Positions 4,101-51,990 of a DNA stretch of 64,000 nucleotides are shown in pieces (position 1 is the first letter of the stretch; each line of letters begins with the position of its first letter). The notes beneath the pieces are model-generated. The model saw only the letters and a list, made by a program, of their open reading frames with translations. It had not been told where the DNA came from and did no database searches. Source of the DNA: Bacteroidales bacterium. GTDB taxonomy: Bacteria; Bacteroidota; Bacteroidia; Bacteroidales; UBA4181. A program made the position numbers and the translations under genes. Location of the stretch: NCBI GenBank assembly GCA_031275285.1, contig JAISOY010000173.1:1098-65097 (forward strand), in the 5' to 3' direction.

Positions 4101-4336
4101 AATTCCTGCTCAGGTGTTGTAAATTCAATTCCGTCATAACGACATAATCCCAACCCGGAAGCGAACCAGATGAAGCCATATTTATCCTGAACAATTGAAT
4201 TAATGGTATAATGGCAAAGTCCCTGATTTATACCGTAATGCCTGAACTTGTATACCTGGGCATCACTTACATAACAGAATGACACGAAAAATGTGATAAG
4301 GAGAACATTCCGGGTGAGCCTGCTTCTCATTGCCAT
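1154..4336 (-). CDS. sensor protein: periplasmic two-component-regulator beta-propeller/Y_Y_Y region, one TM helix, cytoplasmic PP2C/SpoIIE-type phosphatase
   Basis: 1060 aa. N-terminal signal peptide and repeated propeller-like segments (G..WFGT, GL..Y). TM segment WWFILLVIGILVGIVYIIITI. C-terminal SGDFYW...DSTGHGVPGA...TDGYPDQFGG motifs match SpoIIE/PP2C. Confidence 0.8.
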   Translation of the reverse strand: MAMRSRLTRNVLLITFFVSFCYVSDAQVYKFRHYGINQGLCHYTINSIVQDKYGFIWFASGLGLCRYDGIEFTTPEQELPTLNVTASFKDKSGNLWFGYDDGLILKYDGLNFSLEDTSKNSEITQIIQSPKGDILATTLNGSIVRISEKKVTYLTLDTTNKIIYSICFIDENRLFIGCLDGLFIYRYDDEKDNLSLIKRVDVPNSLIRSVIPGSQDNFWVATEEDGIYSIKSVRDDLIIKKMDIPVIEDASVQSVNEDDRNDLWISTFGKGLFRVQYTHELVTENLYNYNYENGLGSDFVKQVFFDNQQNLWVGTMQGVSSLTNRSISFLEKIPYVWNNASAIYSKDNTAYWAAGIGAIVKFAPNPDESHIILNQANGVPNDRITALHMDKHENLWIGTEKSGLFRLPKDSREVLPYYRSENSLSNTIQAITSVNDSIVYASRNGVVIINTQTGGSKVINTFNGLPHNNIKDIYKDSKGIVWIATSSNSVISINKLLGHQNNLSVIGKEDRLTVEGDAKVEFTSITEGRLGNIWAGTDGNGVYMFDRKNDTVYHFTSLDGLKSDYCYAISSDKNNHVWIGHRQGLSRINIQQLTITTYGKEDGITGDVNPNTMLVNESNELMVGLTDGVLLYDINADESINQAPILNLINVTIGDQTFNPNEPLVLPYDQDKYKVHFNFVGLHYRNPEAVTYQYILEGFEKEWSHLSSFNFAIYPSLADGEYKFWVKSCNGDDCTDPTLLFTLKINKPFWKTWWFILLVIGILVGIVYIIITIRERNHRIQQEYLERELDARTKEVLEQKEEIEEKNRDITDSINYAQRIQFSVLPSTKTLLENCSGAFIFYRPRDIVSGDFYWFEYFPETECLLIVCADSTGHGVPGAFMSLIGTTLIKDIVMRPEIQTPKEILYRLDENIQSTLNQNQESEQANDGMDIVVCEINTRTYFTRISSAMRPFVVYHDGVPTTYKGSHSSIGGQQLRNKTFEQVELQLSKGDIIYMFTDGYPDQFGGPAGKKFKMNRLQSVFEDIHNRDMDEQYRVIKENFDLWKGNIEQLDDVLMIGVKI

Positions 4337-24429: not shown

Positions 24430-25653
24430 ATGAAAAGTACGTATCGAATCCTTTTCTTAATCAGAAAGAGAGACTTAAACAAGGATGGACTCGCCAATAT
24501 CATGGTTAGAATAACAATTAGCGGAGAAAAAGCAGAATTCAGTTCCAAAGAATTTGTCAAGCCTGAAATGTGGAACTCATTGGGCAAAGTCATGGGAAGA
24601 ACAAAGGAAGCCCAACAAATAAATGATTCGCTGGATAAAATAAAGATTGCTTTGGATAAGCAATACAAAGAAATTCTTGAAAAAGATGGCTATGTTACAC
24701 CGGATAAACTCCGAGACACCTATCTGGGTAAGATTATTCGTAAACATACCGTCTTATCCCTATATAATATTAAGGTAGAGCAAAAGCGAAATCTTGTCGG
24801 AAAAACAATCCGTTGTACCACTCTTTCTAAATATTTGGCTACCCGAAAGCGTGTTGCCGATTTCATGGTGTACAAATATAAGAAAGAAGATATGCCAATC
24901 CGCGATGTAGATTTTCAATTTGTGACGGACTATGAGGTTTATCTGAAATCAATCTGCAAATGTGGACATAACTCTACCGTCAAACATTTACGTTACTTGA
25001 AGCAAGTAGTTACCAATGCGCTTAAAAACAGATATATTGCCGTTGACCCTTTCGATGATTATACATTAGGATACAAGCCTGTAAAAAAGGAATTTCTGAT
25101 TGAGCCTGAAATCAAGAAGCTAATGAATAAGAAATTCGAGTCAAAACGACTAGCGGAAGTACGAGATGTATTTTTGTTTCAAATTTTCACTGGGTTAGCC
25201 TACATAGATGCCGCCAATCTAACAGAGAATAATATTATAGAAGACGGTTACGGACAGAAATGGATACAACTGACCCGTCAGAAATCTTCTGTTCAGGCTA
25301 ATATTCCACTATTGGATGTTCCTTTATCTATTCTCAAAAAATATAAAGGATTGAAAAACGGTAAACTGTTACCCATTCATACCAACCAAAAAATGAACGA
25401 ATATTTGAAAGAAATTGCTTCTTTATGTGGCATAAATAAAAGATTGACAACGCATTGCGGTAGGCATTCGTTCGGAACGATTATGCTGACCAAAGGGGTT
25501 TCAATCGAAAGTGTTTCTAAGATGTTAGGTCATACAAATATCACTACAACACAGATTTACGCGAAAGTTCTTAATCAGAAAATATTCACGGAAGTGAATA
25601 AGGTCAGAGGAGAATTGGATGGGTTGGCAAAGTATTATAGACAGAGGAAATAA
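24430..25653 (+). CDS. tyrosine-type site-specific integrase (Bacteroides type, N-terminal arm-binding domain)
   Basis: 407 aa. C-terminal catalytic pattern HCGRHSFGT...LGHTNITTTQIYAKV (R..HxxR..Y). The N-terminus resembles Bacteroidetes integrase arm-binding domains. Confidence 0.92.
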   Translation: MKSTYRILFLIRKRDLNKDGLANIMVRITISGEKAEFSSKEFVKPEMWNSLGKVMGRTKEAQQINDSLDKIKIALDKQYKEILEKDGYVTPDKLRDTYLGKIIRKHTVLSLYNIKVEQKRNLVGKTIRCTTLSKYLATRKRVADFMVYKYKKEDMPIRDVDFQFVTDYEVYLKSICKCGHNSTVKHLRYLKQVVTNALKNRYIAVDPFDDYTLGYKPVKKEFLIEPEIKKLMNKKFESKRLAEVRDVFLFQIFTGLAYIDAANLTENNIIEDGYGQKWIQLTRQKSSVQANIPLLDVPLSILKKYKGLKNGKLLPIHTNQKMNEYLKEIASLCGINKRLTTHCGRHSFGTIMLTKGVSIESVSKMLGHTNITTTQIYAKVLNQKIFTEVNKVRGELDGLAKYYRQRK

Positions 25654-25750: not shown

Positions 25751-26776
25751 ATGATACAGATTAAAAAGATAAATATAAAACATATCCTTATTTTTCTGTT
25801 TGCCACACTGCTTTATGCTTTGTGTCAAATGCTTTTCAGTGCTATTCTGATGAAAGAAGATTTAGGGGATAAATTTCTGATTCAGCTACTATCCCACTAT
25901 GTCGTAATCTTTACCATGTGTATCGCAGATTACCTGTTATTACTATTCCTGAATAAGTATATACCCTATTCCAAAAACATATTACTCCGTGTCATAGCAG
26001 ACTTTGTTGGGGTAATCGTAATATGCCTGATTGTATTGGGTATGTTCAATTACCTGATATATGATGTACTTCTTATTTCAAAAGACGGGCTGCCTTCTTT
26101 CCTTGTCAAATTTGCATTTGGGATGACAAACAATATCCCTATCCTGTTGGCATTTGAGCTGATCCACTACTTCCAATCCGAACAAAAAGCCATCGCTGAT
26201 TCCGAGAAAGCAAAACGTGAAGCATTGCTGTTCGAACATGAAACGCTGAGGTCGCAGATAAACCCGCATTTTCTGTTTAACTCGCTGAATGTATTATCGT
26301 CATTAATCTATATGAATCCGGACAATGCGAATAAGTTCACCAAAGCCCTCTCAAAAACTTATCGCTATGTGCTTTCTTTAAACCGCCGACCAATGGTTTC
26401 TGTTGAAGAAGATTTGGACGCACTGGAATCATATATCTTCCTAATGGAAATGAGATTTGAAAACTCTTTTACTTTTACGGTAAACAAAACGTGCGCCTGT
26501 GAAAAGAAGATGATTATTCCCCTTACCCTGCAATTACTGATAGAGAACGTATTCAAGCATAATGTAGCAACCGAAGAAATGCCATTGGATATAAAAATTA
26601 CTATCGGGAGTGAATACATTACAGTTGAGAACAATATCCAGCCCTCGAATGATGTGGATAAAGGAGGAATCGGACTGAAATATCTCACAAAGCAATATAA
26701 ACTGTATGCCAAAGAGGTAGTCGTTGAGCATACTCCCCAAGTGTTTATTGTAAAAATCCCCTATATACAACCATGA
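25751..26776 (+). CDS. LytS/YehU-type sensor histidine kinase
   Basis: Multi-TM N-terminus. The His_kinase motif LRSQINPHFLFNSLN and ATPase motifs LLIENVFKHN and GGIGL are present. Confidence 0.85.
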   Translation: MIQIKKINIKHILIFLFATLLYALCQMLFSAILMKEDLGDKFLIQLLSHYVVIFTMCIADYLLLLFLNKYIPYSKNILLRVIADFVGVIVICLIVLGMFNYLIYDVLLISKDGLPSFLVKFAFGMTNNIPILLAFELIHYFQSEQKAIADSEKAKREALLFEHETLRSQINPHFLFNSLNVLSSLIYMNPDNANKFTKALSKTYRYVLSLNRRPMVSVEEDLDALESYIFLMEMRFENSFTFTVNKTCACEKKMIIPLTLQLLIENVFKHNVATEEMPLDIKITIGSEYITVENNIQPSNDVDKGGIGLKYLTKQYKLYAKEVVVEHTPQVFIVKIPYIQP

Positions 26777-27525
26777 AGTACCTGATAGTAGAAGATGAGC
26801 GGTTTGCATACGAAGAACTGAAACGCATGATGACGGAGTTACGTCCCGATTATTCGTTGGAGAAGCGGACGAAAACAGTCGTAGACACCATTGCGTTTTT
26901 GAAAACTTCTGCTGTCGATCTGATTTTGTTGGATATACGGCTTGCCGATGGCAACTGCTTCGAGATATTCAACCATGTAGAGGTCAGTACGCCTGTCATA
27001 TTTACCACTGCTTACGATGAACACGCTATCAAGGCATTCAAGTTGAACAGCATTGATTACCTGTTAAAACCTTTTGATGAAAAGGAACTGGAGGCGGCAT
27101 TAATCAAGTTTGAGAATATCTTCCACGATAATTCTCATAAAACCGATCCGAAGAACTTCGAGCAGATATTGGCAGCCAAAAACAAGAACCGTTTCTTGAT
27201 ATCGAAAGGAGACAATTATCATTATATAGAAACGGCGGATATTGCTCATTTTTACAGTGAAGAAGGGGTTGTATTCCTGCATACGTTTCAAAACAAACGA
27301 TATATCATCAATTACACGTTAGACCAACTGGAACAGCAGCTTGATAGCCGCCTGTTTTTTCGAGTATCACGTAATTGCATCAGTAATGTGAAGGCAATCG
27401 AAAATGTGGCTAAATACTTCAATAGCCGTTTAAAGCTCTCTTTCCAACCTGCCTGTCCTCACGAAGTGCTGGTCAGCAGGGTGCGTGTACCCGACTTTCT
27501 GAAATGGATGGACGGGATTCTTTAA
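26773..27525 (+). CDS. LytTR-family response regulator
   Basis: REC (YLIVEDE, LILLDIRL) plus a C-terminal LytTR-like region. ATGA overlap with the kinase gene. Confidence 0.88.
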   Translation: MKYLIVEDERFAYEELKRMMTELRPDYSLEKRTKTVVDTIAFLKTSAVDLILLDIRLADGNCFEIFNHVEVSTPVIFTTAYDEHAIKAFKLNSIDYLLKPFDEKELEAALIKFENIFHDNSHKTDPKNFEQILAAKNKNRFLISKGDNYHYIETADIAHFYSEEGVVFLHTFQNKRYIINYTLDQLEQQLDSRLFFRVSRNCISNVKAIENVAKYFNSRLKLSFQPACPHEVLVSRVRVPDFLKWMDGIL

Positions 27526-38244: not shown

Positions 38245-39117
38245 ATGCATGATTATACAATGGAAAAAAGCAAAGAATTATCAATAGTTAAAGAACTTAC
38301 AAACGTAAATGATGACAGTCGCATTGCCGTAAATGACATTGGATGGACAAGCCGTGTTTATATCGTAGATAATGGGTTGTTTGTATTTAAATTCCTGAAA
38401 AACAGGGAGTATAAAGAGGAACTCGAACATGAGATAAACATATTGAAACGAATAAGGGAATACGAGTTTAATGTAAATATTCCTTTAATCAATCATATCG
38501 GTGAAGATACCGCTTACATTGGTTTTCGTGGTGTGGCAGGAAAGTCTATGACAACAGAAATCGTTCGTAAACTGAACGAAGAGCAAAAAAGAAAAATCGG
38601 CACTCAAATAGGCTTGTTCTTAAAAAAACTTCATGCTATTGATTACAAAGGTGAAAGCCCGAATGATGAAAACAGTATAATCGAATGGTTTCAAGCATCT
38701 TTCAGTAAGGGAAAGCGCACATTGGAAAAATATTTTAATGAAAAAGAACTCAATTCCATTGAAGAGCTTGTAACAAGTCTACCACAAAAATCGGCAAAGC
38801 TTGGTATAGAAGAAGTTTTTTGTCATGGAGATTTAGGTTATAATAATATTCTGTTAACCGATGATTTTGAGGTTGGCATAATAGATTTTGGCGATGCCGG
38901 AAATCTTGATAAATCGTATGATTTTATTGGAATTGAAGACGATACTATTTTGGATGCAGCAATATTAATGTATGGCGATAACGACGTTTTAAGGGAAAAA
39001 GTCGCCGTAAGACGACAATTGCTTCCGCTGATGGAAATGTTATTTCTGATTGACCGAAAAGAATGGGACGAAGTAAAAATATGTGCAGACAAAATGCGCG
39101 TTAATGTAATTTCCTAA
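38245..39117 (+). CDS. aminoglycoside phosphotransferase (APH) family protein, APH(2'')-like motifs
   Basis: Kinase-fold motifs FCHGDLGYNNILL (HGDxxxxN) and IIDFGDAGNLDKSYDF. About 290 aa. Confidence 0.75.
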   Translation: MHDYTMEKSKELSIVKELTNVNDDSRIAVNDIGWTSRVYIVDNGLFVFKFLKNREYKEELEHEINILKRIREYEFNVNIPLINHIGEDTAYIGFRGVAGKSMTTEIVRKLNEEQKRKIGTQIGLFLKKLHAIDYKGESPNDENSIIEWFQASFSKGKRTLEKYFNEKELNSIEELVTSLPQKSAKLGIEEVFCHGDLGYNNILLTDDFEVGIIDFGDAGNLDKSYDFIGIEDDTILDAAILMYGDNDVLREKVAVRRQLLPLMEMLFLIDRKEWDEVKICADKMRVNVIS

Positions 39118-39138: not shown

Positions 39139-40419
39139 TTATAACTGCCGTCCTCGTTTCCGCTTCTTTGCTTTTAGTTGTCGTTGTTTTTCTTCCCGTT
39201 CTTTTTCTCTGGCAAAGGCGACATCTTCATAATTTTCGCCCTGTGGCTCAACGTCAAAAAGACTGAACAGGCTTGAAGCCGCATCTGTGATACCTGACAT
39301 ATTAAGCGATGGCGAAGAGGGCTTTTCCGGTTGAGGTGTATAGCTGACTTGTGTTTCCGGTCTTTCTTTTTTCACCGGAACATCATTGAACAGATTTTGG
39401 AACTGATTAGCCGAAAACTCTTTGCCTAAGCGAGAACCGTTAAGTATTGCCTGATTTTGATGATCTATAAATGTTACTCCGTATATCCGCCCTTGCTCGT
39501 TTTGCCGGAAAATAGCTCCGATATTTTTTCCTTTCAACAGAAGCTTGAAATCATGTATGTTATTTGTGTCTTTCATGGCTTTGGCTACAATCGGACGAAG
39601 ATTCTCCCTTATCCTGTTTTTCTCAATCGCTGATTTGGATAACTCAAAATGCTTTTGCATGGCATCGTAACCAACCGGTTTGCCGAACAATGACGATTTC
39701 AGAGGAACACCTACTTTCTCACCCTTGTCGTTTATTACAGAATAGATTAATCCCTGATAGGGTTTTCCCCGGTGTTCGCCTTTCACTTCTTCGACCGTAA
39801 CATTGAATTGTTCCAGCAATGTCCGGTACTCCCCGAATGACTGGAAATAGAAATGGTTCATAACCGACTTGGTAATATTGCCGACCTGATGTTTTATGTC
39901 TCCGGCTTTGTAATCTATCTTTTTTGTAGGGGCTTCGCTTTCCCGTCTTCCTTTCTCCAACGGGATAAGATTGAATTCCTGTTCCAGTTCCTTGCATATC
40001 TTCATCGAACGGGCTACTTCAAAGCTATCGTTTATCTTCTTGCCGGTTTCATCGACCCGCAGTGATACAATATGTGCGTGCGTCCGGTCTATGTCCGAAT
40101 GTTTGAATACGATATAAGGCTGATTTCCGTAGCCGAGTTTTTCCATGTATTGTCGGGCAATCTCCGACAAGCGTTCATCCGATAGTTTATCTTTCGGATC
40201 AGGATTAAGAGAAGCATGGAATACGACTTTTTCCGTCCTGTTGTTCATCGCCAGATAGGGAGCAAACGAATCCATACAATCATGGATAGAGAATTTACCG
40301 TCAGGAGAATCGAACATCCTCTGACTGTACAAAATTTCCGCCTGATTATCTTCCACCTTGATTTTATTATAGGCTAATACCCCGAATACCGATTTACCGG
40401 AACTTATTTTGGCGAGCAT
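39139..40419 (-). CDS. relaxase/mobilization nuclease (Bacteroides MobB/BmgA-like)
   Basis: N-terminal relaxase domain with 3-His motif HSDIDRTHAHIV. Basic C-terminal tail. Confidence 0.88.
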   Translation of the reverse strand: MLAKISSGKSVFGVLAYNKIKVEDNQAEILYSQRMFDSPDGKFSIHDCMDSFAPYLAMNNRTEKVVFHASLNPDPKDKLSDERLSEIARQYMEKLGYGNQPYIVFKHSDIDRTHAHIVSLRVDETGKKINDSFEVARSMKICKELEQEFNLIPLEKGRRESEAPTKKIDYKAGDIKHQVGNITKSVMNHFYFQSFGEYRTLLEQFNVTVEEVKGEHRGKPYQGLIYSVINDKGEKVGVPLKSSLFGKPVGYDAMQKHFELSKSAIEKNRIRENLRPIVAKAMKDTNNIHDFKLLLKGKNIGAIFRQNEQGRIYGVTFIDHQNQAILNGSRLGKEFSANQFQNLFNDVPVKKERPETQVSYTPQPEKPSSPSLNMSGITDAASSLFSLFDVEPQGENYEDVAFAREKEREEKQRQLKAKKRKRGRQL

Positions 40420-40844
40420 CGTTCCCTGATTTGAGTGTATAAATCTTCTATCTGACCTTTCAATAGTATAAAATCCAATGTCGGCTTCTCGATTATTTTC
40501 AACATCGAACGGGCTTTTCCCTCTCCCACATGCCGCACTAATGAGGCGAAAACCTGATTATAATTCGTCTTTATCGCTCGGAATTGAGCAAAGAACTGGG
40601 ATAACAGTATGGCAAAATCCATTGCCGGTTTATCTATCGGAATAATCTTTAGCGGATTATTCAGGATACAATTCACCATGAAACGGGACTTACTTTTGTG
40701 TCCCGACTTATGATACAAGGATAGAAACCGTTCGTTATCCTTGTTATTGAGGCGTATCATATGGCGGTGCATTTGTTTATCCGCCTTGGGCTTACGCCCT
40801 CTTTTCTTTTTGAGCCGTCCAGCTTCATGCTCATCATGCTTCAT
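40404..40844 (-). CDS. MobC-like relaxosome accessory protein
   Basis: Basic N-terminus (KKKRGRKPK) and RHH-like segment. 16-nt overlap with the relaxase gene. Start set at Met104 of the listed ORF, whose upstream part crosses the oriT-like repeats. Confidence 0.65.
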   Translation of the reverse strand: MKHDEHEAGRLKKKRGRKPKADKQMHRHMIRLNNKDNERFLSLYHKSGHKSKSRFMVNCILNNPLKIIPIDKPAMDFAILLSQFFAQFRAIKTNYNQVFASLVRHVGEGKARSMLKIIEKPTLDFILLKGQIEDLYTQIRERCSPK

Positions 40845-40986
40845 ACTTAATTGCATCATTAAAAGGTTCGACTTGGGAGAATCGCCCCCAAACCACCGGT
40901 TTGGGCAAGAAATGTTTTTGGAAGAAGGAAAATGGAATTTTTCGCTGACAAAAACACTTCTTGCTATTGTCCGGCGACAATAAAAT

Positions 40987-41083
40987 CCGCCACTCGTGGC
41001 GGACGTTAGCAGTAAGCGCGGGCGGTTACTCATTAATCGGGAGTATAAAATCAAAAACAACTCCCGACTTTCATTCCCGCCCG
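40987..41083. other. candidate oriT: hairpin plus nested inverted repeats upstream of the mob operon
   Basis: CCGCCAC-TC-GTGGCGG (40987-41002). Nested pairs CGGGCGG (41019-41025)/CCGCCCG (41077-41083) and CGGGAGT (41038-41044)/ACTCCCG (41060-41066). Confidence 0.4.
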
Positions 41084-41336
41084 ACAAAGATAGGTGATGA
41101 ACTCCGCTTGTACACAATAAGATAAGCGGACAGAAAGAGCCAGTTGGTGCCACATATACCCGATTTCAGAATCAGCTTTCTTTTATCACTTTATTTGTGT
41201 CGGCAAACAAACAGGGATTTATACAACCTTACTTATATGTCGGGTTTATGCCGGTAATGATATATCGACTGCCTATCTGTTAGTGTGTCACCATGTAGGC
41301 AGTAAAACAAGATAGAAACCAAGTAAATAGCATTAT

Positions 41337-41780
41337 ATGAAAGAAGATAGTAAAACAGACAAGAAGCAAAGTACGGGAATAGACACGAGTGCCTTCATCC
41401 GCCAAGTATCGGTTGCAGGCACAACAACTGACATTCCGCCAACCGTGCAACCGGTATCGGACGAAAACGAACAGGCGAATGAACCGGAAGCCGTTCAACC
41501 ACCCAACGAACCTGAAAAACAATCAGTCAGACGAAAGAAGTATCAAACGAATATCGACTATCCGGCGGTTTTTCTGTCCCGATACGAATTAAAAACGCGA
41601 CAAGGAATTTATATCGAAAAGGAAACCAATGAAACGATCAAGCGCATAGTCCATAATATTGGCGGCGAACGACTGACTGTTAGCGGATTTATCGAGAATG
41701 TATTAAAACATCACTTCGAGCTATATAAAGACGAGATCAACAACCTGTATGAATCGAAATTCAGTAAACCCATTAAATAA
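41337..41780 (+). CDS. DUF3408-like protein of Bacteroidetes mobile elements
   Basis: C-terminal YPAVFLSR...GIYIEKETNETIKRIV...FIENVLKHHFELYKDEI matches my recollection of DUF3408. Confidence 0.6.
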   Translation: MKEDSKTDKKQSTGIDTSAFIRQVSVAGTTTDIPPTVQPVSDENEQANEPEAVQPPNEPEKQSVRRKKYQTNIDYPAVFLSRYELKTRQGIYIEKETNETIKRIVHNIGGERLTVSGFIENVLKHHFELYKDEINNLYESKFSKPIK

Positions 41781-41787
41781 TAAGAAC

Positions 41788-42573
41788 ATGAACAATTCAG
41801 AGAATCAAAAACAAGCAAGACCTGTGTATCTTTCTTTTTGCACCCAAAAAGGCGGAGCGGGCAAATCCGTATTTACAACTTTAGTCGCCAGCTACCTGCA
41901 TTATTTGAAAAACTATAATGTGGCTGTAATAGATTGTGATTATCCGCAATGGAGTATCCAGAAGATGCGGAAACGGGAAGCGGAGCAACTACAAACCAAT
42001 GCTTTTTATCAGAGGAAAGCGGAAGCCCTGTTCACGAAATTGGGTAAACCGACTTATCCCATCGTTCCGACCGAACCGGAGCAAGCTCTGACAAGAGCAA
42101 AAGCATTTTTGGAGAACGAATCCGAGGAATATGATGTAGTCCTGTTCGACTTGCCGGGAACGGTGAACAACGAAAATGTCGTTCAGATATTTTTTCAGAT
42201 GGATTACCTGTTTGTTCCGATAACTACTTCGCGTATCAATATGGAAAGCACCTTGCCGTTTATTATTTCTATTAACGAGATGATAACCATGAATCCGCAG
42301 GTTAGGTTAAAAGGTATCTATCCTTTTTGGAACAGAGTAACCAACCGTGAAAGACGGGAACTGTTCAATTATTACGAAGAAGCCATCTTAGGATTGGGCA
42401 TTTCCATTATGGAAAGCCGTATTCCGCAAAGTGTCCGTTACGACAGGGAACAATCCATAGAGGGCAACGACTATCTGTTCTTATCTACAATCTTTCCTCC
42501 TGATAAGCCACTTCTGAAAGACAGTAATTTGGATTTGTTGGTAGAGGAAGTTATCAAAGCGACCAATCTGTAA
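41788..42573 (+). CDS. ParA-family ATPase (TraA-like)
   Basis: Deviant Walker A CTQKGGAGKS. Walker B VVLFDLPG. Confidence 0.85.
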   Translation: MNNSENQKQARPVYLSFCTQKGGAGKSVFTTLVASYLHYLKNYNVAVIDCDYPQWSIQKMRKREAEQLQTNAFYQRKAEALFTKLGKPTYPIVPTEPEQALTRAKAFLENESEEYDVVLFDLPGTVNNENVVQIFFQMDYLFVPITTSRINMESTLPFIISINEMITMNPQVRLKGIYPFWNRVTNRERRELFNYYEEAILGLGISIMESRIPQSVRYDREQSIEGNDYLFLSTIFPPDKPLLKDSNLDLLVEEVIKATNL

Positions 42574-43330: not shown

Positions 43331-43363
43331 TTTGGGTAGTATCGAAAAAAATCAATATATTTG
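43331..43363 (+). promoter_or_regulatory. Bacteroidetes-type promoter candidate for the defence operon
   Basis: TTTG (43331-43334), a 21-nt spacer, then TATATTTG (43356-43363, fits TAnnTTTG), 35 nt upstream of the ATG at 43398. Confidence 0.5.
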
Positions 43364-43397
43364 CAAAATATACCAACTAATTAGTAAGAAAGAAGAG

Positions 43398-43589
43398 ATG
43401 AACAGACTTAAAGCGGTATTAGCCGAGCAGCGTCGTACAGGTAAATGGCTTGCAGAAACCCTAGGAAGAGATCAATCCACGGTATCTAGATGGTGTTCAA
43501 ATAAAAGCCAGCCTCCTATGGATACAATGCATAAAATAGCGAATTTGTTAGATATTGATGTTAAAGAGCTTATAATTTCAACAAAATAA
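43398..43589 (+). CDS. XRE/Cro-C1-type HTH protein (controller C-protein-like)
   Basis: 63 aa. GKWLAETLGRDQSTVSRWCSNKSQP is a classic HTH_3 pattern. It is the first gene of the methyltransferase operon. Confidence 0.8.
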   Translation: MNRLKAVLAEQRRTGKWLAETLGRDQSTVSRWCSNKSQPPMDTMHKIANLLDIDVKELIISTK

Positions 43590-43595
43590 CCTGAA

Positions 43596-44867
43596 ATGGA
43601 ACAATACATACAATATATACATTTCGATAATGTACCTGTTAATCCTGACTGGTGCTTTAAGAATGTGCGTTCTACAGAACAATGGACACATGGATACCAT
43701 AGATATCCTGCTAAATTCTTACCCAATTTAGTGAAAAAGTTAATAGAAGAATATACTCAAGAAGATGATTTAGTGGCAGATATGTTTGCGGGATGTGGAA
43801 CAACTCTTGTTGAAGCGAAAATACATGGCCGAAAATCTGTTGGAGTTGATATTAATCCTGTAGCAGAGTTAATAACACGAGCTAAAATAAATCCAATAAA
43901 TCCAGAGAAGCTAACTAAAAGATATAATAAAATAATTAAAAGATTAGATCAGTTTTCTCAAACAGATTATATGAATCTATCTGTTCATGAAAAAATTGAT
44001 TACTGGTTTTTTCCTGAGCATAAAGCGAAAATAGCGTTTTTATATAATGAAATTACATCAATTAAGAATACAAAAGAAAAAGAGTTTTTCCTCGTTTCGC
44101 TTTCTCACATTCTCAAAAATTGCTCAAAATGGTTACAATCAAGCACTAAACCTCAAATTGATCCTAAAAAGAAACCTTCTGACCCTTTTGACGCATTTCA
44201 GTTACATTCAAGACAGATGATGAACAAAAATTCAGATTTTTATTCACAGCTAGTAACTAATGATTTTTTAAATGTTAGATGTGATATAAAGTTAGAAGAT
44301 GCTAGAAAAACATCAATAAAATCTAATTCAGTTGCAGCTATTGTCACATCACCACCATATGTAACCTCTTATGAATATGCAGATATTCATCAACTGACAG
44401 GATATTGGTATGAATACATAGAAAATTTAGCAGACTTTAGAAGAAATTTTATTGGTACATTTTATTCATTAAATCAAAATTTAGAATGTGAGTCAAGACT
44501 AGCTCAGGATATTGTCAGCCAGCTATTAAAGAAAGACCCTCGAACAGCAAAAGAGGTAGCGAATTATTTTAAAGACATGTCTGATGTAGGAAAAGAAATG
44601 CATAGAATACTTAGAAAAGGTGGTCATGCTTGTCTTGTAATAGGAAATACAACATTTAAAAACATAAAAATAAAATCAGCCGAGGTTATTGCGGATTTAC
44701 TTATCTTATTAGGATTTGAAATTGTTGAAGTAATAAAAAGAAGTATTCCTAATAAGTTAATACCGACAATAAGAGATGAAGTTACAGGCAAATTTTCTAA
44801 ACTAGAAAATGCAAATAGTAAACTTGTTTATCCTGAAGAATACATATTAATAGTAAAGAAAATATGA
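43596..44867 (+). CDS. amino-DNA methyltransferase (N4-C or N6-A), motif I before motif IV
   Basis: HRYPAKFLP, SAM motif DMFAGCGTT (aa 62-70), GVDINP, catalytic TSPPY (aa 251-255). Confidence 0.88.
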   Translation: MEQYIQYIHFDNVPVNPDWCFKNVRSTEQWTHGYHRYPAKFLPNLVKKLIEEYTQEDDLVADMFAGCGTTLVEAKIHGRKSVGVDINPVAELITRAKINPINPEKLTKRYNKIIKRLDQFSQTDYMNLSVHEKIDYWFFPEHKAKIAFLYNEITSIKNTKEKEFFLVSLSHILKNCSKWLQSSTKPQIDPKKKPSDPFDAFQLHSRQMMNKNSDFYSQLVTNDFLNVRCDIKLEDARKTSIKSNSVAAIVTSPPYVTSYEYADIHQLTGYWYEYIENLADFRRNFIGTFYSLNQNLECESRLAQDIVSQLLKKDPRTAKEVANYFKDMSDVGKEMHRILRKGGHACLVIGNTTFKNIKIKSAEVIADLLILLGFEIVEVIKRSIPNKLIPTIRDEVTGKFSKLENANSKLVYPEEYILIVKKI

Positions 44868-44868
44868 T

Positions 44869-47091
44869 ATGGCAATTATAAAAAAAGATAGTCAACCATT
44901 TCAGCCATATGCACGATTGATGAATATTCTTGGAGATCAGCTTATTACAGACAAAAAGGTCGCTGTAATAGAAATCCTAAAGAATAGTTATGATGCGGAT
45001 GCAGATGATGTTAAAGTCCGTTTCTTTAATTTAGAAAATTATGGAAAAAAATACTTAGAAGATGATGAGTTACCATATATCGAAATAGAAGATGATGGAG
45101 ATGGTATGACTCTCGAAACAATCCAAAACGTATGGCTTAGGCCTGCCACTCCTAATAAATTAGATAAGAAAAAAAGAAAAGAAAATCATACTAAGAAAGG
45201 GCGAATTATTCAAGGAGAGAAAGGTGTTGGGCGTTTCGCAATACACAAATTGGGAGAGAGAATAGATTTATACACTAAAACGTTAGAAGGAGAAGAGGTT
45301 AGGCTAGAGATGGATTTTACCGAATATAATCCAGAAGATATAGACTTATTCAATCAACCTTCTTCCCAATATAAATTGCTAAATGAAGTTCATAATACTT
45401 GGTATGTGAATGATCCTCCTGTAGAAATAAAGAAAGAAAAAGGTACTCTTATAAGAATTCATAATCTGAGGGAGAAATGGACTTCAAAAGATTTTGAAGA
45501 TTTATATAAGTCTATTTTACGTCTTATCCCTCCGATTGATGAAAATGCTATAAAGTTAGGAGTTAATTTTATACAAGACTTTTCAATAGAATTATTCTTA
45601 AATGATAAGCTATATATTTCTAGCGAGGTTACAACTTTTAAAGATGTCGTAGAAAGAGCTCAGTTCTCAATGATCGGTGAAGTTTCTGGTGATGGTGTGT
45701 TAAAATTTGAATATAATTCGACATCTCCCAAAAGAAATTTCCATAGAAGCATTAATCTTTTGGATAAAGATAATTTGTCACAGTTTCAATACCCAACAAA
45801 AACAATTGAAGACTGGTTTATTAAATTTGGAAGAGTGCCTAGCTGTGGTAGTTTTAAATTTACGTTTTATGCTTTTAATTTAAAGAAAAGAGATAAAACT
45901 ATTATTACAGCTGAAATTGACCAATTCATTAAACAAAATTTTGTTTACTTACTAAGAGATGGGGTACGTGTATATCCATATGGAGAAAAGGGTTATGACT
46001 GGCTAGAACTAGATAAATTAAGGGCTACTATTAAAGCAGGTGATTATATTAGTTATAATGATTTAATTGGTTTTGTCTATATAAGTCAAGAAAATAATCC
46101 TAGGTTAAAAGACTCAACCAATAGACAAGGGATTATGGATGTTGATGGTGCTTTTGAAGATTTTAAGAGATTGTTAACAGAAACCACTCAAATACTAAAT
46201 ACGGAAAAGAAAATTGATGAAAACAAACTAGAGATAAATAAAAACCAAACTTATAAAGACTCCAATAATTTAGTATTAAATTCTTTTAACCTCTTTAAGT
46301 CAAGTCTTCAAAATGTAGATAATAAAGATGTATTAGAAAAAGCAAATAAGTTTCTTAAAGCTGTTAATAATCATACAACTATCATGAAAGAACGTATGGA
46401 AACAGTTGAGGATTTAGCCGGTCTTGGAATGGCTGTAGAGAGATCTTCACACGATTCTCTAACATTGCTGGCTAAAATGAGAGTAAATGTTAAAGACTTT
46501 AAAATAAAGGTGAAAAAAAAAGATTATAAGGACAAAGATATTTTGGCATTACTTGATGAACTTGATGAAAGCTTAAATTTTGTTTATGATGAAATGCAAG
46601 TTATTCAACCTTTATTTAAAAATCAACGTAAAGCCATAAAAAATATTAGCATTTATGAAACAGCTAATAAGGTAGTAAAGTATTTCAGAAGAGATATTGA
46701 CGGAAAAATTAATGTTTCAATACAAAATGATGGTGATATTACAGTAAAAACCAACGCAGGGCTTATTCTTCAAATATTAATCAATTTGCTTGATAATGCA
46801 ATTTATTGGGTTAATAAAAATGAAACATCACCAAAAGAAATAACGATCAAAATAAATTCTAAAAATGACACTCTTGTCATTGCTGATAATGGGCCTGGTA
46901 TACGTGAAGATACCATACCTCTTATATATAATGAATTTTTTTCACTAAAATCAGATGGACGTGGATTGGGACTTTATATCGTTAAAGAAATTCTTCTTAG
47001 AATTAATGGGGAAATTTCAGTTATTCAAGATGAAGATCGTAAGCTTCTTCATGGAGCAAACTTTATCATTAAATTTAATCAAGAGCAATAA
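44869..47091 (+). CDS. fusion protein: N-terminal MutL/MORC-like GHKL ATPase plus C-terminal histidine-kinase core (HisKA-like + HATPase_c)
   Basis: N-terminal: EILKNSYDA (ExxxNxxD), EDDGDGM (DxGxG), GEKGVGRFA. C-terminal: H-box ERSSHDSLTLL (His528, codon 46450-46452), N-box LINLLDNAIYW, G1 IADNGPGI, F IYNEFF, G2 GRGLGLYIV. Confidence 0.8.
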   Translation: MAIIKKDSQPFQPYARLMNILGDQLITDKKVAVIEILKNSYDADADDVKVRFFNLENYGKKYLEDDELPYIEIEDDGDGMTLETIQNVWLRPATPNKLDKKKRKENHTKKGRIIQGEKGVGRFAIHKLGERIDLYTKTLEGEEVRLEMDFTEYNPEDIDLFNQPSSQYKLLNEVHNTWYVNDPPVEIKKEKGTLIRIHNLREKWTSKDFEDLYKSILRLIPPIDENAIKLGVNFIQDFSIELFLNDKLYISSEVTTFKDVVERAQFSMIGEVSGDGVLKFEYNSTSPKRNFHRSINLLDKDNLSQFQYPTKTIEDWFIKFGRVPSCGSFKFTFYAFNLKKRDKTIITAEIDQFIKQNFVYLLRDGVRVYPYGEKGYDWLELDKLRATIKAGDYISYNDLIGFVYISQENNPRLKDSTNRQGIMDVDGAFEDFKRLLTETTQILNTEKKIDENKLEINKNQTYKDSNNLVLNSFNLFKSSLQNVDNKDVLEKANKFLKAVNNHTTIMKERMETVEDLAGLGMAVERSSHDSLTLLAKMRVNVKDFKIKVKKKDYKDKDILALLDELDESLNFVYDEMQVIQPLFKNQRKAIKNISIYETANKVVKYFRRDIDGKINVSIQNDGDITVKTNAGLILQILINLLDNAIYWVNKNETSPKEITIKINSKNDTLVIADNGPGIREDTIPLIYNEFFSLKSDGRGLGLYIVKEILLRINGEISVIQDEDRKLLHGANFIIKFNQEQ

Positions 47092-47092
47092 T

Positions 47093-48328
47093 ATGGAAGG
47101 TATTATTTTATTTGCAGATGACAATGTTTTTGATTCTGATCGACTTGAGAACAAATTATTTCATAAGTTCAATTCAAATGGCTATTTTTCTATATTACCA
47201 ATTAATAATTTAACTATTCTTGAAAAAACAGTTTCATCCATATCTACTTATAAAGCGTTGATTCTAGATTGGAATTTTAAGAGATTTGTTGATGATGAGG
47301 ATTTTGAAGATATAGAAGTGGAAGATGAAACACCATTAGAATTTTTAAGAAAAAACAAATTATATTCATTAATCTATATATATTCTCAAGATTTAATTCC
47401 TCAAGATATACAAGATGAGCTGAATGCTTTATATCCTAATAAAATATTCTTTGAGAAAAAAAATGCTACGAATGAAACAGAAAAAGAATATAACAAAATT
47501 ATCGCTGGAATTAATAAGTTTCAGGAAGAAAATACACACTTAGAAGTTCCTTTTGTGTGGAGTCAAGCTATAAACCAATCAGCTCAAGTTATATTCTCTG
47601 AATTGGAAAAAGCTGATCCGAACTGGATCAGAGAAATATATCAAACTGCGCAAACAGATGGGGCAGAGCCTAGTATTGAAGTTATAAATGTATTTCACAA
47701 TTTATTGAATGAATCAATTGTTCAGAATGATATTCTGTCAAGAGTTTTGTCTGAGTATACTGAATCTTCAAATGTGAGAAATCCAACTAGTGAACTATCT
47801 TTAGCTAAATTATATAATAGAATTTATTATACAAAATTGCTTGATACTGCTCCATTCATGACAGGGGATATTTTTAAATTTTCTGAGGAAGATTTTGCAA
47901 TATTATTTACTCCAGAATGTGATGTTTCTTCTAAGCAAGATAAAGCTCTCGAATTTTTAGTTTTCAGAAAAAATAATTTTAATGATTTTTTATCCGATAA
48001 GAAGCAATACTCAAAGGATCAGTATTCACAAATGATTAATAAACAAAAACAATCAAAAGATTTAACATCCCAGTTCAATAATGGAAATATGGCATTCCAT
48101 ATTCTTCCATCCTTTCCTTTTGATGAGACTTCATATAATATGTCTGCTTTTATTGACTTTGAATCTGCTTTTGTTGTCAAGGATACTGATTTTTTTAAGG
48201 ATAAAAGAAGCCAATATAAATTGAATTCTCCATATATTTATCAATTACGTCAGCGTTATATTGCATATATTGGACGAGTTGGAGTTCCTGCGATTCCTCA
48301 AAGTTTACGACTTTACAATTTGAAATAA
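47093..48328 (+). CDS. receiver (REC)-like domain protein with an uncharacterised ~290-aa C-terminal domain
   Basis: IILFADD (acidic pair D9/D10), ALILDWN (Asp59, codon 47267-47269), IYIYS (Ser98), FFEKK (Lys122). The start is 1 nt after the kinase stop. The rest is unrecognised. Confidence 0.6.
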   Translation: MEGIILFADDNVFDSDRLENKLFHKFNSNGYFSILPINNLTILEKTVSSISTYKALILDWNFKRFVDDEDFEDIEVEDETPLEFLRKNKLYSLIYIYSQDLIPQDIQDELNALYPNKIFFEKKNATNETEKEYNKIIAGINKFQEENTHLEVPFVWSQAINQSAQVIFSELEKADPNWIREIYQTAQTDGAEPSIEVINVFHNLLNESIVQNDILSRVLSEYTESSNVRNPTSELSLAKLYNRIYYTKLLDTAPFMTGDIFKFSEEDFAILFTPECDVSSKQDKALEFLVFRKNNFNDFLSDKKQYSKDQYSQMINKQKQSKDLTSQFNNGNMAFHILPSFPFDETSYNMSAFIDFESAFVVKDTDFFKDKRSQYKLNSPYIYQLRQRYIAYIGRVGVPAIPQSLRLYNLK

Positions 48329-48365
48329 CACTTTAGCATATTTCTTATAACCGAGAACAGATTGA

Positions 48366-50003
48366 ATGTATGATTCTCTAAAAATAAGGAAATTTGAATC
48401 CGAAATTCTGGATAAACATCATCTGAGCTTTGAATTATATTCTTACTCAGAAGATATTGTCATACCGTATTTACTACAATCCTATGGAGATATTGGACGA
48501 TACAGGGATATAATTTTAAAAAATAATATTAGCGAATTTAACTTTCAAGGCTATTTAACTAATATGACACATGGAATCAGTCACTGTATTAGATGGATAA
48601 AGAAACAGGCAAAATCTAATCACGATGAGATTCCTGATAATTTAAACATATCAGTATTTCATAATCAGATAATGGACTTTTTGAATTGGGGCGTGAGTTA
48701 TCATCTGATTGCACAGGAGTTTGTTATATGGTCAAGAGGGCTGAAATCTGCACAATTGAATGAGAAAGAGAAGACTATAAAGTTCATCAACTCCAATAAC
48801 TATAATTATTCTGACATCTATACGAAACAGCTTTTATATGGAGAACAATTACAAGGAGTATTTGAGAATTATCCACATAGTATAATGGAAGATGAGTTTT
48901 CTGAATGGGTCAAAGAAATAGATTTTTCAAAACCACCTATAGCAAATCAGATAAAATGGTCAAGAGGACAAATATCCAAATCTTTTCCACTTTTATATTC
49001 TACAATGGAAAGCATAGTCTTTCCTGAATTAATTGACGATACTGATTTAGGAGGGTACAATCTCTCACAACTCAGAAGGTTTTTTGCATTAATGTTTCTG
49101 AACTTTTATTATATTACTTGTGTCGAGTCGTTGATTGATTCAAAGTATGGAGTCCAGAATTCCTTTGGTTCAAATCCTCTAAACATAAAGAAATCTGAAA
49201 TAGACGAATTTATATCAGAAATAACCGGACTCCCATATCCTGTATCACAAGCTATAATTAAAGACTTAACATTCAATCCTGATAGTTTTCATACCAGCAT
49301 TTCTATCCAACCTTTTATCCTCTCTAGCACCAATATTTATTACATATTGCCAAATCTTTTTACCCAACTGGATCCTCAAAGAGTAATTTTAGGTGCGATG
49401 AATAAAAGCCCGGAGAAGAAAAAAGTATATGATCGATTGATCAATAAGATAGAAAAGGTAAACTTGAAAAAAATATTTGATGCTCTTTCTCAAACTGAAA
49501 AATGGAATAATTACCAAGAAAGAACCATTAAGTTCAATAATAAACAAATAAATCCAGACCTAATACTTATAGATAAAACTGAAAAATTCATATGTATTGT
49601 TGACTATAAACATTTTATTGTACCTATAACAGCATCAGAAGTGCAATTTAGAATGAATGAACTGGAAAAAGGTATTCGACAAATAGAAAACTATAAAATT
49701 GTACTGTCAAAAAAAGGTCATTTAGGAAAAGATGATATAAATAATTATGAGATTTGTGGATTATTATTAACTCATCGTCCTCTACCGATTCCAATTAAAA
49801 ACAATATTAATATCGGTATTGCAGATATGGATTCTTTTATATCTAAATTAGCTCAAAATATAAGTTTGAGAAACTTTTGGATAGATTTCTATGATTATCC
49901 TAACCATAAAGAAATAAAAAAAGAATTTTCGAAAATCGAATCAGAAGTAAATGTGACTGATTGGAAAATAATTCGCGAACAATTTTTTCTTTCATTTGAA
50001 TGA
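48366..50003 (+). CDS. large hypothetical protein with a C-terminal PD-(D/E)xK (NERD-like) nuclease motif
   Basis: INPD(398)LILIDKTEKFICIVD(413)YK(415)HF fits hhhD-x(n)-hhhDxK. The first ~390 aa are unrecognised. Confidence 0.5.
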   Translation: MYDSLKIRKFESEILDKHHLSFELYSYSEDIVIPYLLQSYGDIGRYRDIILKNNISEFNFQGYLTNMTHGISHCIRWIKKQAKSNHDEIPDNLNISVFHNQIMDFLNWGVSYHLIAQEFVIWSRGLKSAQLNEKEKTIKFINSNNYNYSDIYTKQLLYGEQLQGVFENYPHSIMEDEFSEWVKEIDFSKPPIANQIKWSRGQISKSFPLLYSTMESIVFPELIDDTDLGGYNLSQLRRFFALMFLNFYYITCVESLIDSKYGVQNSFGSNPLNIKKSEIDEFISEITGLPYPVSQAIIKDLTFNPDSFHTSISIQPFILSSTNIYYILPNLFTQLDPQRVILGAMNKSPEKKKVYDRLINKIEKVNLKKIFDALSQTEKWNNYQERTIKFNNKQINPDLILIDKTEKFICIVDYKHFIVPITASEVQFRMNELEKGIRQIENYKIVLSKKGHLGKDDINNYEICGLLLTHRPLPIPIKNNINIGIADMDSFISKLAQNISLRNFWIDFYDYPNHKEIKKEFSKIESEVNVTDWKIIREQFFLSFE

Positions 50004-50276: not shown

Positions 50277-51230
50277 TTATTTGTTATTTCTTATCTTCCA
50301 AATTGCCATTGGATGATTTTTGATTCGCTCTACAATTTCAGTATCTTCAAACAATAATTCCGGTCGATAGACATTATTGTTGAAGTTTTCGATAAACGAC
50401 TTTTCTTCTTCGGTAAATATCATCAATTTTAGAAGAAATGCTTTCACTTCTACTTTTGCTGATTCAAAGTCAAATCGTTCACTTTTCTTAAGGACAGGAA
50501 GCAAAGAACTTCTGATTTGTGCAAATTTTAGGTTATTAATACTTTCAAAACTATAGCTGTTTAAAGGTTTATCATTTCCTCCTACAGCAAGATAGAATAA
50601 TATAATTTTACGGAGTTTATCCATCTCATCAGGATGAATGATGTTATATTTCAACATGTTGTGAATATCATACAAGTCCCGGGGAGCCGTTCGCTCAATA
50701 AGAGCCTTAATTTTGCTTCCAAACAGTTCAAGGGTGGAAAGGGTTTTTACTTCGGAATCAAATTGCAGAAAATCTATATTCACTTTCTTTTCTATTATTG
50801 GCAAGACATGATTTCGCAAAGAATAGTTTATTTCTACTTTCAGGTTATCTTTATTCCCTCCTGCATTCTGGAAATAAAATACCCATGAATCAAGTGAATG
50901 TGGACTTTTTGTGTTAGGGCTTAACGCATATCCTTGTGTAAACATATAGCTCAGAAAATCCTGATTGATGCTATCCCGAATTATCGTCATTTCATCTCGG
51001 GAACATTCTTTCGTAAAATCCAAGTCGATATCAACCGATAGTCGAGGAAGATTAAAAACGGTCAGGTTAATTGCGGTTCCTCCTTTCAATGCCAAATGTT
51101 CTGCAAATAAAGGATTTTCATTTAAGTGCTTCAAAATATCACAAAGCCGGAACACTTTTTCCAGATTATCCCGAATGAAATCTGTACCGGAAGCTATTCT
51201 CTCTAAGTCAGTTTTGCTATAATTATACAT
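50277..51230 (-). CDS. AbiEii/AbiGii nucleotidyltransferase toxin
   Basis: LKGGTAINL...SVDIDLDF...PRDLYDI motifs of the DUF1814/AbiEii family. Confidence 0.85.
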   Translation of the reverse strand: MYNYSKTDLERIASGTDFIRDNLEKVFRLCDILKHLNENPLFAEHLALKGGTAINLTVFNLPRLSVDIDLDFTKECSRDEMTIIRDSINQDFLSYMFTQGYALSPNTKSPHSLDSWVFYFQNAGGNKDNLKVEINYSLRNHVLPIIEKKVNIDFLQFDSEVKTLSTLELFGSKIKALIERTAPRDLYDIHNMLKYNIIHPDEMDKLRKIILFYLAVGGNDKPLNSYSFESINNLKFAQIRSSLLPVLKKSERFDFESAKVEVKAFLLKLMIFTEEEKSFIENFNNNVYRPELLFEDTEIVERIKNHPMAIWKIRNNK

Positions 51231-51990
51231 TTACACTTCCTCCTTGTTCTAAAAATGAAAGAATATTTTGGGGAGCATAAAGTCTCCATTTGCTAAAATA
51301 AACGTTGGATTCCTGTTTATCAGTCAGGTAACGAATGCTTTTCCCTATCTTGGATTTACAAAAATCAAAGAAAGCATCGCTTAGCTTCATTTCCTTTTGA
51401 AAATAGTTAAGGATAAATCCTGTCTTTTGATAAAGAACCTGTTTATTGAGTAGTGTCAAATAGTCGCGCAGCTTATTTTCATTGATATAAGTGATAAGGG
51501 CAAAGCATTCTATTATTTCTTCCAGTCCTCCGCTTCGGTCTATCTGATTGATACAATCTAAAACAGTACGTTCCAAATCGGTTACTCTGATTAACGTATC
51601 GGCAGGAGGAGTAATAACTCCGGCATCCGATTTTGATTCCGAATAGATATAACTAATTCCATCATACTCAAAGTTATTGAACCTCTCTTTGGATGAAACC
51701 TGCATTTCATAAAAAATCTGATGAGCCAGACCATGATATTCCAACGCAGCGTGATAGGATAGATAAGAAGAAGAATTGATTTGACTACCGATTTCGTACT
51801 TTGAAGCAGAACTGGTTTTTGTAGCCAAATCCGTTGCAACATAGAGGTCTCGCCTTACTTGTGATATGAATCGTTGTTTCTTATACCTCCGCAAAAGTTC
51901 TTTTGCTGCATTTTCGTTATTGGTCAATGCAACAATGTCCTTTTTGTGGAAGATTTTGAGTTTATGAAATTCTTCGATATATTTGTTCAT
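51223..51990 (-). CDS. AbiEi family antitoxin/transcriptional regulator
   Basis: N-terminal wHTH-like region, YLSYHAALEYHGL and TDLERTVLDC patterns. 8-nt overlap with the AbiEii gene. Confidence 0.8.
   Translation of the reverse strand: MNKYIEEFHKLKIFHKKDIVALTNNENAAKELLRRYKKQRFISQVRRDLYVATDLATKTSSASKYEIGSQINSSSYLSYHAALEYHGLAHQIFYEMQVSSKERFNNFEYDGISYIYSESKSDAGVITPPADTLIRVTDLERTVLDCINQIDRSGGLEEIIECFALITYINENKLRDYLTLLNKQVLYQKTGFILNYFQKEMKLSDAFFDFCKSKIGKSIRYLTDKQESNVYFSKWRLYAPQNILSFLEQGGSVNV

Follow-up and report, generated by a model that had tools for sequence, protein, structure and literature searches.

A stretch of 64,000 nucleotides from a Bacteroidales bacterium (GenBank assembly GCA_031275285.1, contig JAISOY010000173.1, positions 1,098 to 65,097 of the forward strand), hereafter the window, contains a gene for a protein with two GHKL ATPase modules. 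This gene probably encodes the sensor kinase of a two-component defence module that is linked to restriction-modification (R-M), operates by a phosphorelay and resides in a horizontally acquired five-gene operon; the kinase would be a Bacteroidota relative of AbrB, the kinase of the phage-defence system Ambrosia. The assignment is supported by two intact and distinct ATP sites, an adjacent and co-inherited His/Asp pair composed of the kinase and a receiver protein, the linkage to a DNA methyltransferase gene, the location in mobile, defence-rich DNA and the homology to AbrB. The open reading frame (ORF) of the kinase is intact, and its product and parts are as follows (aa, amino acid residues):

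44869-47091, + strand: GHKL-histidine kinase, 740 aa, soluble, AbrB homologue (ORF, Pfam, profile and fold matches)
44956-45393, + strand: GHKL module 1, hydrolase type, aa 30-175 (Pfam HATPase_c_3, E-value 3.3e-18)
45394-46143, + strand: middle region, alpha/beta, aa 176-425 (conservation, fold match)
46150-46407, + strand: two long helices, aa 428-480 and 486-513, joining the head to the kinase core (AlphaFold2 secondary structure)
46411-46629, + strand: DHp helical hairpin, aa ~515-587, with the predicted phospho-acceptor His528-Asp529 (alignment with the ZraS H-box, PDB profile matches)
46639-47082, + strand: GHKL module 2, kinase-type CA domain, aa 591-738 (Pfam HATPase_c, E-value 8.1e-22, aa 632-738)

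Both Pfam matches are far above the curated cut-offs, which bears out the claim of a preliminary description of this stretch that one polypeptide contains two Bergerat-fold modules. Module 1 comprises the motifs E35-x3-N39-x2-D42 and D75-x-G77-x-G79 and the lid G116-x2-G119-x-G121; judging by the motif pattern of hydrolysing GHKL proteins, E35 is the general-base Glu, located four residues ahead of the Mg-binding N39. Module 2 contains the boxes of a sensor kinase, including the N box N639-x3-N643, the G1 box D673xGxG, the F box F690-F691 and the G2 box G697-x-G-x-G701. Module 1, with E35-x3-N39 and its general-base Glu, is thus of another type than module 2, with its kinase N box. All the motif residues listed in the preliminary description (E35/N39/D42, D75xGxG, G116xxGxG, H528 and N643) were found in their places. 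The complete kinase core with a phospho-acceptor-like His, also proposed there, is confirmed by the search of the PDB with the family profile, which matched entire DHp and CA cores (3a0r, 6e-33; ZraS, 9jfj, 1e-30; HK853, 3e-23), and by the alignment that pairs H528 (codon 46450-46452) with the His in the H-box of ZraS ('AHEIRNPL'). The same profile matched the N-domains of HtpG and GRP94 at E-values of about 1e-9. Of the Pfam models named in the preliminary description, HATPase_c_3 and HATPase_c were found, but the HisKA model gave no match to the DHp region of the window kinase. As had been stated there, the protein has neither a transmembrane segment (the maximal Kyte-Doolittle mean over 19 residues is 1.48) nor PAS or GAF domains detectable with Pfam.

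Comparison of 65 full-length relatives (27-67% identity) indicated that residues of both ATP sites, namely E35, N39, D42, D75, G77, G79, N643, D673, G675, G699 and G701, are invariant in 65/65 sequences; H528 is retained in 63 of them, and an acidic residue stands next to H528 in 63/65. The strongest motif of the family is located in the middle region (R363-D-G-x-R367-V-x-P-Y-G...D377-W). More than 120 homologues of the same length show 63-98% identity to the window kinase, and E<=1e-30 is reached by 967 clusters (50% identity), so the kinase is not a fusion artefact.

AlphaFold2 modelling predicted the succession of a GHKL and alpha/beta region (aa 1-425), the long helices (aa 428-513), the DHp hairpin (aa 519-587 in the model) and the CA domain, with low predicted local distance difference test (pLDDT) values at aa 369-397; the two long helices presumably form a signalling coiled coil. 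A PDB fold search with this model superposed the last 250 residues on HK853, YF1, ZraS and CpxA (TMt 0.5-0.59) and aligned the N-terminal 450-500 residues with the N and middle domains of Hsp90-family proteins (TRAP1, GRP94, Hsp90) over ~510-530 columns at E-values of about 1e-9, although the TM-scores were low (0.25-0.38) and part of this region has pLDDT <50. No MutL or MORC structures were present among the 50 fold matches listed for the kinase model. The N-terminal 200 aa of the head also match the N-terminus of the BbrUII/HgiDII restriction enzymes (NCBIfam NF050001, 2.8e-18), with a score of 66 bits against a cut-off of 550 bits. The head possesses the features of a MORC-type Bergerat fold, including the catalytic Glu, the Mg-binding Asn and the Gly-rich lids. 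Thus, the earlier designation of the head as MutL/MORC-like holds insofar as the module is a hydrolase-type GHKL ATPase, but the nearest solved relatives belong to the Hsp90 family (TRAP1, GRP94, HtpG) and not to MutL or MORC, and the Hsp90-family matches together with the BbrUII/HgiDII match make 'Hsp90/paraMORC-like head' the better description.

The relationship with Ambrosia places these domains in a context of defence. Ambrosia is a phage-defence system of Pseudomonas aeruginosa, validated in 2025, which includes AbrR (XRE), AbrA (N6 methyltransferase), AbrB (a 747-aa HATPase/kinase), AbrC (REC) and AbrD (type IV HNH endonuclease); all five genes are required, and defence is lost upon the substitution N40A in AbrB or D60A in AbrC (van den Berg et al., bioRxiv 10.1101/2025.09.30.679545). 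A BLASTP comparison of AbrB aa 1-399 (taken from Table S1 of that work) with aa 1-425 of the window kinase showed a colinear alignment with 29% identity (E-value 1e-39), where N40 of AbrB falls on N39. The suggestion that the head occupies the sensor position of the kinase agrees with the domain order, and with the loss of Ambrosia defence caused by N40A, which affects the ATP site of the head.

The kinase gene is the third of five genes in a tightly packed operon (43398-50003), where the intergenic gaps are, in gene order, 6, 1, 1 and 37 nt. The GC content of the operon is 28-31% (29.8% overall), compared with 39.5% (~40%) for the window. The preliminary description missed what is the decisive context, i.e., the methyltransferase gene upstream and the gene of the cognate receiver downstream. 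The other features of the operon are as follows:

43356-43372, + strand: 7-nt perfect inverted repeat TATATTT-GCA-AAATATA, overlapping a Bacteroidota-type -7 motif TAnnTTTG
43398-43589, + strand: XRE-family helix-turn-helix (HTH) regulator, 63 aa, first gene (homology)
43596-44867, + strand: DNA methyltransferase, 423 aa, beta-class N6-adenine/N4-cytosine (N6_N4_Mtase; Pfam PF01555, 2e-25; PADLOC MTase_II, 2e-56)
47093-48328, + strand: receiver protein, 411 aa (AlphaFold2 model, REC fold, conservation)
48366-50003, + strand: accessory protein, 545 aa, candidate PD-(D/E)xK nuclease (C-terminal PD...(D)YK motif)

The methyltransferase stop codon lies 1 nt ahead of the kinase start codon, and the receiver gene begins 1 nt past the kinase stop codon, at 47093 (the mechanically assigned ORF start, 46955, is wrong). 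The receiver protein consists of a REC domain (aa 1-125), a helical region (aa 129-224) and a C-terminal alpha/beta domain (aa ~230-411). Its AlphaFold2 model has a pLDDT of 82 and matches REC domains from the PDB with TMt 0.6-0.74. The residues of the REC site are D9, D10, D59, S98 and K123; among 41 homologues, D9, D59 and S/T98 are kept in all 41, D10 in 36 and K123 in 38. With this fold and these conserved REC active-site residues, the 411-aa protein is the predicted cognate response regulator of the kinase.

The output domain of the receiver protein is conserved too, and it contains two characteristic motifs, a strand followed by P274-x-C276-D277-x3-K, and K376-L-N-S-P-Y...R-Q-R...G-R-V-G-V-P; C276 is invariant in all 41 homologues. 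Receivers from distant loci are homologous to the window receiver (hidden Markov model (HMM) E-values from 1e-11 to 1e-21) and retain the first motif as P-x-C-(D/N)-x3-(R/K), while the second takes the form (S/P)-P-(Y/F)...R-x-G-x-P, and both motifs extend from Bacteroidota to Rothia (window 47780-48325; loci L048-L051). A reading of the output domain as a PD-(D/E)xK nuclease (D259...E275-x-D277) was attractive in the close family, but it has been downgraded, since D259 and E275 are lost in the distant homologues, in which P-x-C-(D/N) is kept. The spacing of Cys-x4-Arg/Lys may loosely recall phosphatase or rhodanese-type loops. Searches with the 411-aa protein did not reveal Pfam (E<=10), NCBIfam, PADLOC or PDB sequence matches, and none of the 120 homologues has a precomputed Pfam match. 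With a profile built from the output domain alone, no annotated relative turned up among 5.8 billion proteins, and nothing in the PDB; short 'stand-alone' matches to this domain either were uninformative or came from the same operon in a frameshifted copy.

The composition of the head, taken by itself, could also be explained if it were an ATP-driven DNA-looping or clamping subunit of a restriction complex, similar to paraMORC and HgiDII proteins, with a kinase core that is secondary or largely vestigial. The match to the N-terminus of BbrUII/HgiDII and the preserved catalytic Glu are in favour of this explanation, and it is established that GHKL+S5 proteins of the paraMORC group partner the nucleases and helicases of R-M systems (Iyer, Abhiman & Aravind 2008, PMC2292703). 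Yet strong purifying selection acts across phyla on all the kinase motifs and the phospho-acceptor His, as well as on the phospho-acceptor Asp and the remaining active-site residues of the REC domain, and AbrC D60A abolishes Ambrosia defence; a head acting only as a motor beside a vestigial kinase is contradicted by these data, and this explanation is judged improbable.

Gene neighbourhoods argue for a module of fixed composition. In a sample of 40 loci, taken as contigs from one genome per species, the genes for the methyltransferase, the kinase and the receiver stand side by side on the same strand wherever the contig permits this to be seen, which applies to essentially all of the ~40 loci; among the taxa are Bacteroidota, Ignavibacteria, Pyrinomonadaceae and a Campylobacter metagenome-assembled genome (MAG). 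Synteny of the methyltransferase and kinase genes was seen in 41 related loci, and in 18 of these an XRE homologue is located directly upstream of the methyltransferase gene. The trio is also present in distant relatives (27-38% identity), found in another Bacteroidota genome, Elusimicrobia, Rothia, an Allorhizobium conjugative plasmid and a Bacillus plasmid; in the latter, the receiver gene is followed after ~1.4 kb by a dcm gene, and the PLSDB gene table, which is incomplete, lists no methyltransferase upstream. The methyltransferases of the distant loci are of the N6/N4 or C5 class, and the genes following the trio in these loci are unrelated, which indicates that the three-gene cassette is self-contained.

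The genes after the trio vary in the related loci as well, encoding a type III Res subunit, a McrB-like protein or, in about half of the loci, nothing conserved; hence, the conserved unit consists of the methyltransferase, the kinase and the receiver, often with the XRE protein. In Parabacteroides and a Bacteroidales MAG, the gene of type III Res (ResIII helicase and RE_endonuc; PADLOC REase_III, E=0) begins 0-1 nt past the receiver gene (L020, 13417-16071; L029, 13443-16088), and the two-component pair, situated between a Mod-like beta-class methyltransferase and Res, resembles an insert within an R-M operon of type III. On a metagenomic contig (L044, 450-4338), the methyltransferase-kinase-receiver operon is split into many short ORFs, being either a decayed copy or the result of long-read frameshift errors.

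The 545-aa protein encoded by the last gene of the window operon was found in only a subset of the related operons. Homologues with 48% identity close the operons of Elizabethkingia, Chryseobacterium and Flavobacterium, and the motif P-D-L-I-L-I-D...V-D-Y-K-H is kept in all five. The best Pfam match of this protein is a weak one to HSDR_N_2 (E-value 0.06), and no NCBIfam, PADLOC or PDB match was found; a phmmer search of the PDB gave an Aurora kinase at an E-value of about 0.2, which was dismissed as a chance match.

The surroundings of the operon indicate mobility. Genes of a MobA/VirD2-type relaxase, MobC_2, DUF3408 and a ParA-like ATPase are located just upstream (window 39139-42573), and a tyrosine integrase with an Arm-DNA-bind_5 domain is encoded at 24430-25653; taken together, the integrase and mobilisation genes suggest an integrative mobilisable or conjugative element. 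The operon is horizontally acquired cargo of a mobile element, in a genome with its closest matches in Dysgonomonas. Relatives of the kinase are encoded by 64 plasmids, 53 of which are predicted to be conjugative, and the family seems to be spread mainly on conjugative elements; 41 of the 64 plasmids are from Campylobacter. Directly downstream of the operon, on the opposite strand, an AbiEii nucleotidyltransferase toxin (Pfam, 6.5e-27) and an AbiEi-like antitoxin are encoded (50277-51230 and 51223-51990, both - strand), so the region represents a small defence island.

Other genes of the window include one for an APH-family phosphotransferase (Pfam APH, 2.1e-22; 38245-39117, + strand), possibly an antibiotic kinase, in a stretch with 34% GC by the mobilisation genes. 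A gene with a His_kinase domain (PF06580, LytS-type; 25751-27525) stands beside the integrase gene and appears unrelated to the kinase operon, as does that of a 1,060-aa Reg_prop/Y_Y_Y protein whose C-terminal end is a SpoIIE phosphatase domain (1154-4336, - strand).

Databases label the homologues merely as 'sensor histidine kinase' or 'ATP-binding protein', which would suit an ordinary housekeeping two-component system that by chance lies near a methyltransferase gene, or a product of fusion or misassembly. However, the trio stays together in ~40 loci, which represent at least five phyla and include conjugative plasmids. The window operon forms a low-GC island within a mobile element, and full-length homologues of the same size number in the hundreds; the synteny and the number of these homologues effectively refute both the housekeeping and the artefact explanations.

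At the beginning of the operon, the XRE protein is 59% identical to the product of the HTH_3 gene upstream of the homologous Elizabethkingia operon, and, judging by its family and position, it may be a controller protein or an AbrR-like regulator. The inverted repeat, a single short one, precedes the start codon of the XRE gene by 26-42 nt; it is a candidate for the operator of a controller protein or the promoter of the operon. The promoter type of Bacteroidota differs from the sigma-70 consensus; a scan for sigma-70 promoters gave fewer matches than in shuffled sequences and, considering this difference, is uninformative.

The main rival explanation is a transcriptional switch like that proposed for Ambrosia, where the kinase would detect infection and the phosphorylated receiver would be a transcription factor that, with the XRE repressor, induces the methyltransferase and nuclease genes, so that expression and not enzyme activity is regulated. 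Reporters placed at the abrA and abrD positions of Ambrosia are silent without phage and induced on infection, and AbrC is reported to have a winged-helix domain (van den Berg et al., bioRxiv 10.1101/2025.09.30.679545). The window itself has the XRE gene and the inverted repeat over the likely promoter, and, according to the predicted structure, the H193-H245 region of the receiver protein with a beta-hairpin could in principle be a winged helix. On the other hand, neither Pfam and NCBIfam searches nor the whole-model PDB fold search revealed an HTH or another DNA-binding family in the 411-aa protein, and the invariant Cys in the motif P-x-C-(D/N)-x3-(R/K) looks more like an enzyme site than a DNA-reading element. 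Moreover, with nothing conserved after the receiver gene in about half of the loci, a pure regulator would control there only the methyltransferase and itself. The absence of a detectable DNA-binding domain and the invariant Cys motif make the transcriptional switch less attractive here, and it is considered rather unlikely, if a more serious candidate than the motor-like head.

The preferred explanation, a phosphorelay that controls a DNA-directed output, can be outlined as follows. The input would be provided by the hydrolase-type GHKL ATPase and the Hsp90-middle-like domain, which may bind and hydrolyse ATP and change their dimerisation or conformation upon an infection cue, and foreign or unmodified DNA would be the most likely cue. 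It is speculation that nucleic acid is sensed by the head or that the head serves as a DNA clamp, as the preliminary description had proposed. The change in the head would be relayed via the two long helices to the DHp hairpin, where the C-terminal kinase-type GHKL domain, with its intact motifs, is expected to phosphorylate His528. The phosphoryl group would then pass from His528 to Asp59 of the receiver, as conservation, synteny and the loss of defence in AbrC D60A suggest. Phosphorylation would switch on the output domain of the receiver, which may be a direct DNA effector or may act via the variable downstream nuclease, here the 545-aa protein; this is the weakest step of the scheme. The methyltransferase presumably provides a self mark or a modification that the system reads, and the XRE protein may hold the operon repressed.

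Several points weigh against this explanation. The AlphaFold2 model of the kinase is of moderate confidence only (mean pLDDT 71.6, and <50 around the DHp); the poor modelling around the DHp is not surprising, as an obligate dimer was modelled as a monomer. Methylation by AbrA gave phage no protection, so a simple logic of restricting unmethylated DNA may not apply, and the authors of the Ambrosia study favour transcriptional control by AbrC (van den Berg et al., bioRxiv 10.1101/2025.09.30.679545). An hhalign comparison of AbrC with the window receiver family showed no similarity (probability 0.2), and the architectures of the two receivers also differ. Finally, the fold search with the whole receiver model against the PDB and viral models gave matches to REC domains only, leaving the output domain without an identifiable fold relative, and the nuclease reading of this domain is weakened by D259 and E275 not being retained in distant homologues.

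R-M systems are normally regarded as constitutive enzymes. A full His-Asp phosphorelay placed between a methyltransferase and an effector could allow a signal to turn on restriction-like immunity. With 967 clusters, the family is large; it extends over many phyla and is carried by conjugative elements, and one distant member, Ambrosia, has been tested, by genetics. The Bacteroidota branch is distinct in its methyltransferase class, receiver-effector protein and nuclease partner. The residual novelty lies in the uncharacterised output domain of the receiver, in the self-contained three-gene cassette and in the fact that the family-specific models of Pfam and the PADLOC models are blind to this branch. 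The system is suited to addressing two questions, namely which cue is sensed by the GHKL head and how a receiver domain is coupled to a DNA-directed output.

Among the known defence systems, Detocs (DtcA-DtcB-DtcC), described by Rousset et al., reportedly defends against phage with a cytoplasmic histidine kinase and a receiver-effector, which do not serve gene regulation there. It is said to have no methyltransferase, a different sensor region, an extra 'buffer' receiver protein and an ATP nucleosidase effector. Detocs does not fit the window operon, as none of the PADLOC models matches the window kinase, the receiver or the 545-aa protein and no second stand-alone receiver gene is present in the operon. 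The methylation-associated defence system (MADS) was rejected as well, the preprint showing a type I-like system of eight genes with a different kinase. The paraMORC/MORC and BbrUII/HgiDII proteins resemble the window kinase in having an N-terminal GHKL domain of the hydrolase type ahead of a second alpha/beta domain, and in a tight linkage to methyltransferases and, in relatives, also to helicases and nucleases. Unlike the window kinase, however, proteins of the paraMORC/BbrUII type carry nuclease, TIR or other C-terminal extensions, with no DHp and CA core and no receiver partner.

A closer counterpart was described by Bellieny-Rabelo, Pretorius & Moleleki (2021, PMC8011034) in a purely computational study, where HK-like proteins composed of HATPase_c_3, a new DHp domain (HEF_HK, PF19191) and HATPase_c were defined. 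Genes of these proteins were linked to RR-like genes (Response_reg_2, PF19192) in 91.6% of cases, R-M genes were enriched nearby, and the authors suggested that the sensor position is occupied by the N-terminal HATPase_c_3 and that paraMORCs are the group from which the family had branched. The window kinase has the three-part architecture of their 'group 1', is likewise soluble and possesses the conserved His followed by Asp/Glu; as in their pairs, it adjoins a receiver-like protein of ~400 aa without another known domain, has a methyltransferase upstream and is found in an R-M and mobile context. The methyltransferase is of the N6/N4 class in the window, whereas C5 methyltransferases were emphasised in that study. 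HEF_HK did not match the window kinase even at E<=10 and matched only two of the 65 full-length relatives (E<=1e-3), and Response_reg_2 did not match the window receiver at E<=10. The Pfam signature of that study is thus missing from the window, but the features that it represents are present, as indicated by the His-Asp/Glu pair of the DHp, the REC fold and the catalytic residues. Consequently, the window kinase is a divergent member of an already described family and not a new architecture, and the idea of a sensor head has already been published; the preliminary description, which called this coupling unusual, overstated its case, considering also the 967 clusters at E<=1e-30.

The comparison with Ambrosia, which was reported in Gammaproteobacteria only (van den Berg et al., bioRxiv 10.1101/2025.09.30.679545), shows both differences and similarities. 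The host of the window system belongs to Bacteroidota, and its methyltransferase is of the beta class (PF01555), in contrast to the gamma-class N6_Mtase/MmeI-like enzyme (PF02384) of Ambrosia; the receiver has 411 aa with a large conserved C-terminal domain, whereas AbrC has 209 aa, and the last gene encodes a 545-aa PD...DxK protein in place of the 213-aa HNH protein AbrD, with no HNH gene in the window operon. At the same time, AbrB and the window kinase both contain HATPase_c_3 and HATPase_c and have similar lengths (747 and 740 aa), and the two systems share the gene order, in which an XRE gene is followed by the genes for the methyltransferase, the kinase, the receiver (Asp60 in Ambrosia, Asp59 in the window) and a nuclease-like protein.

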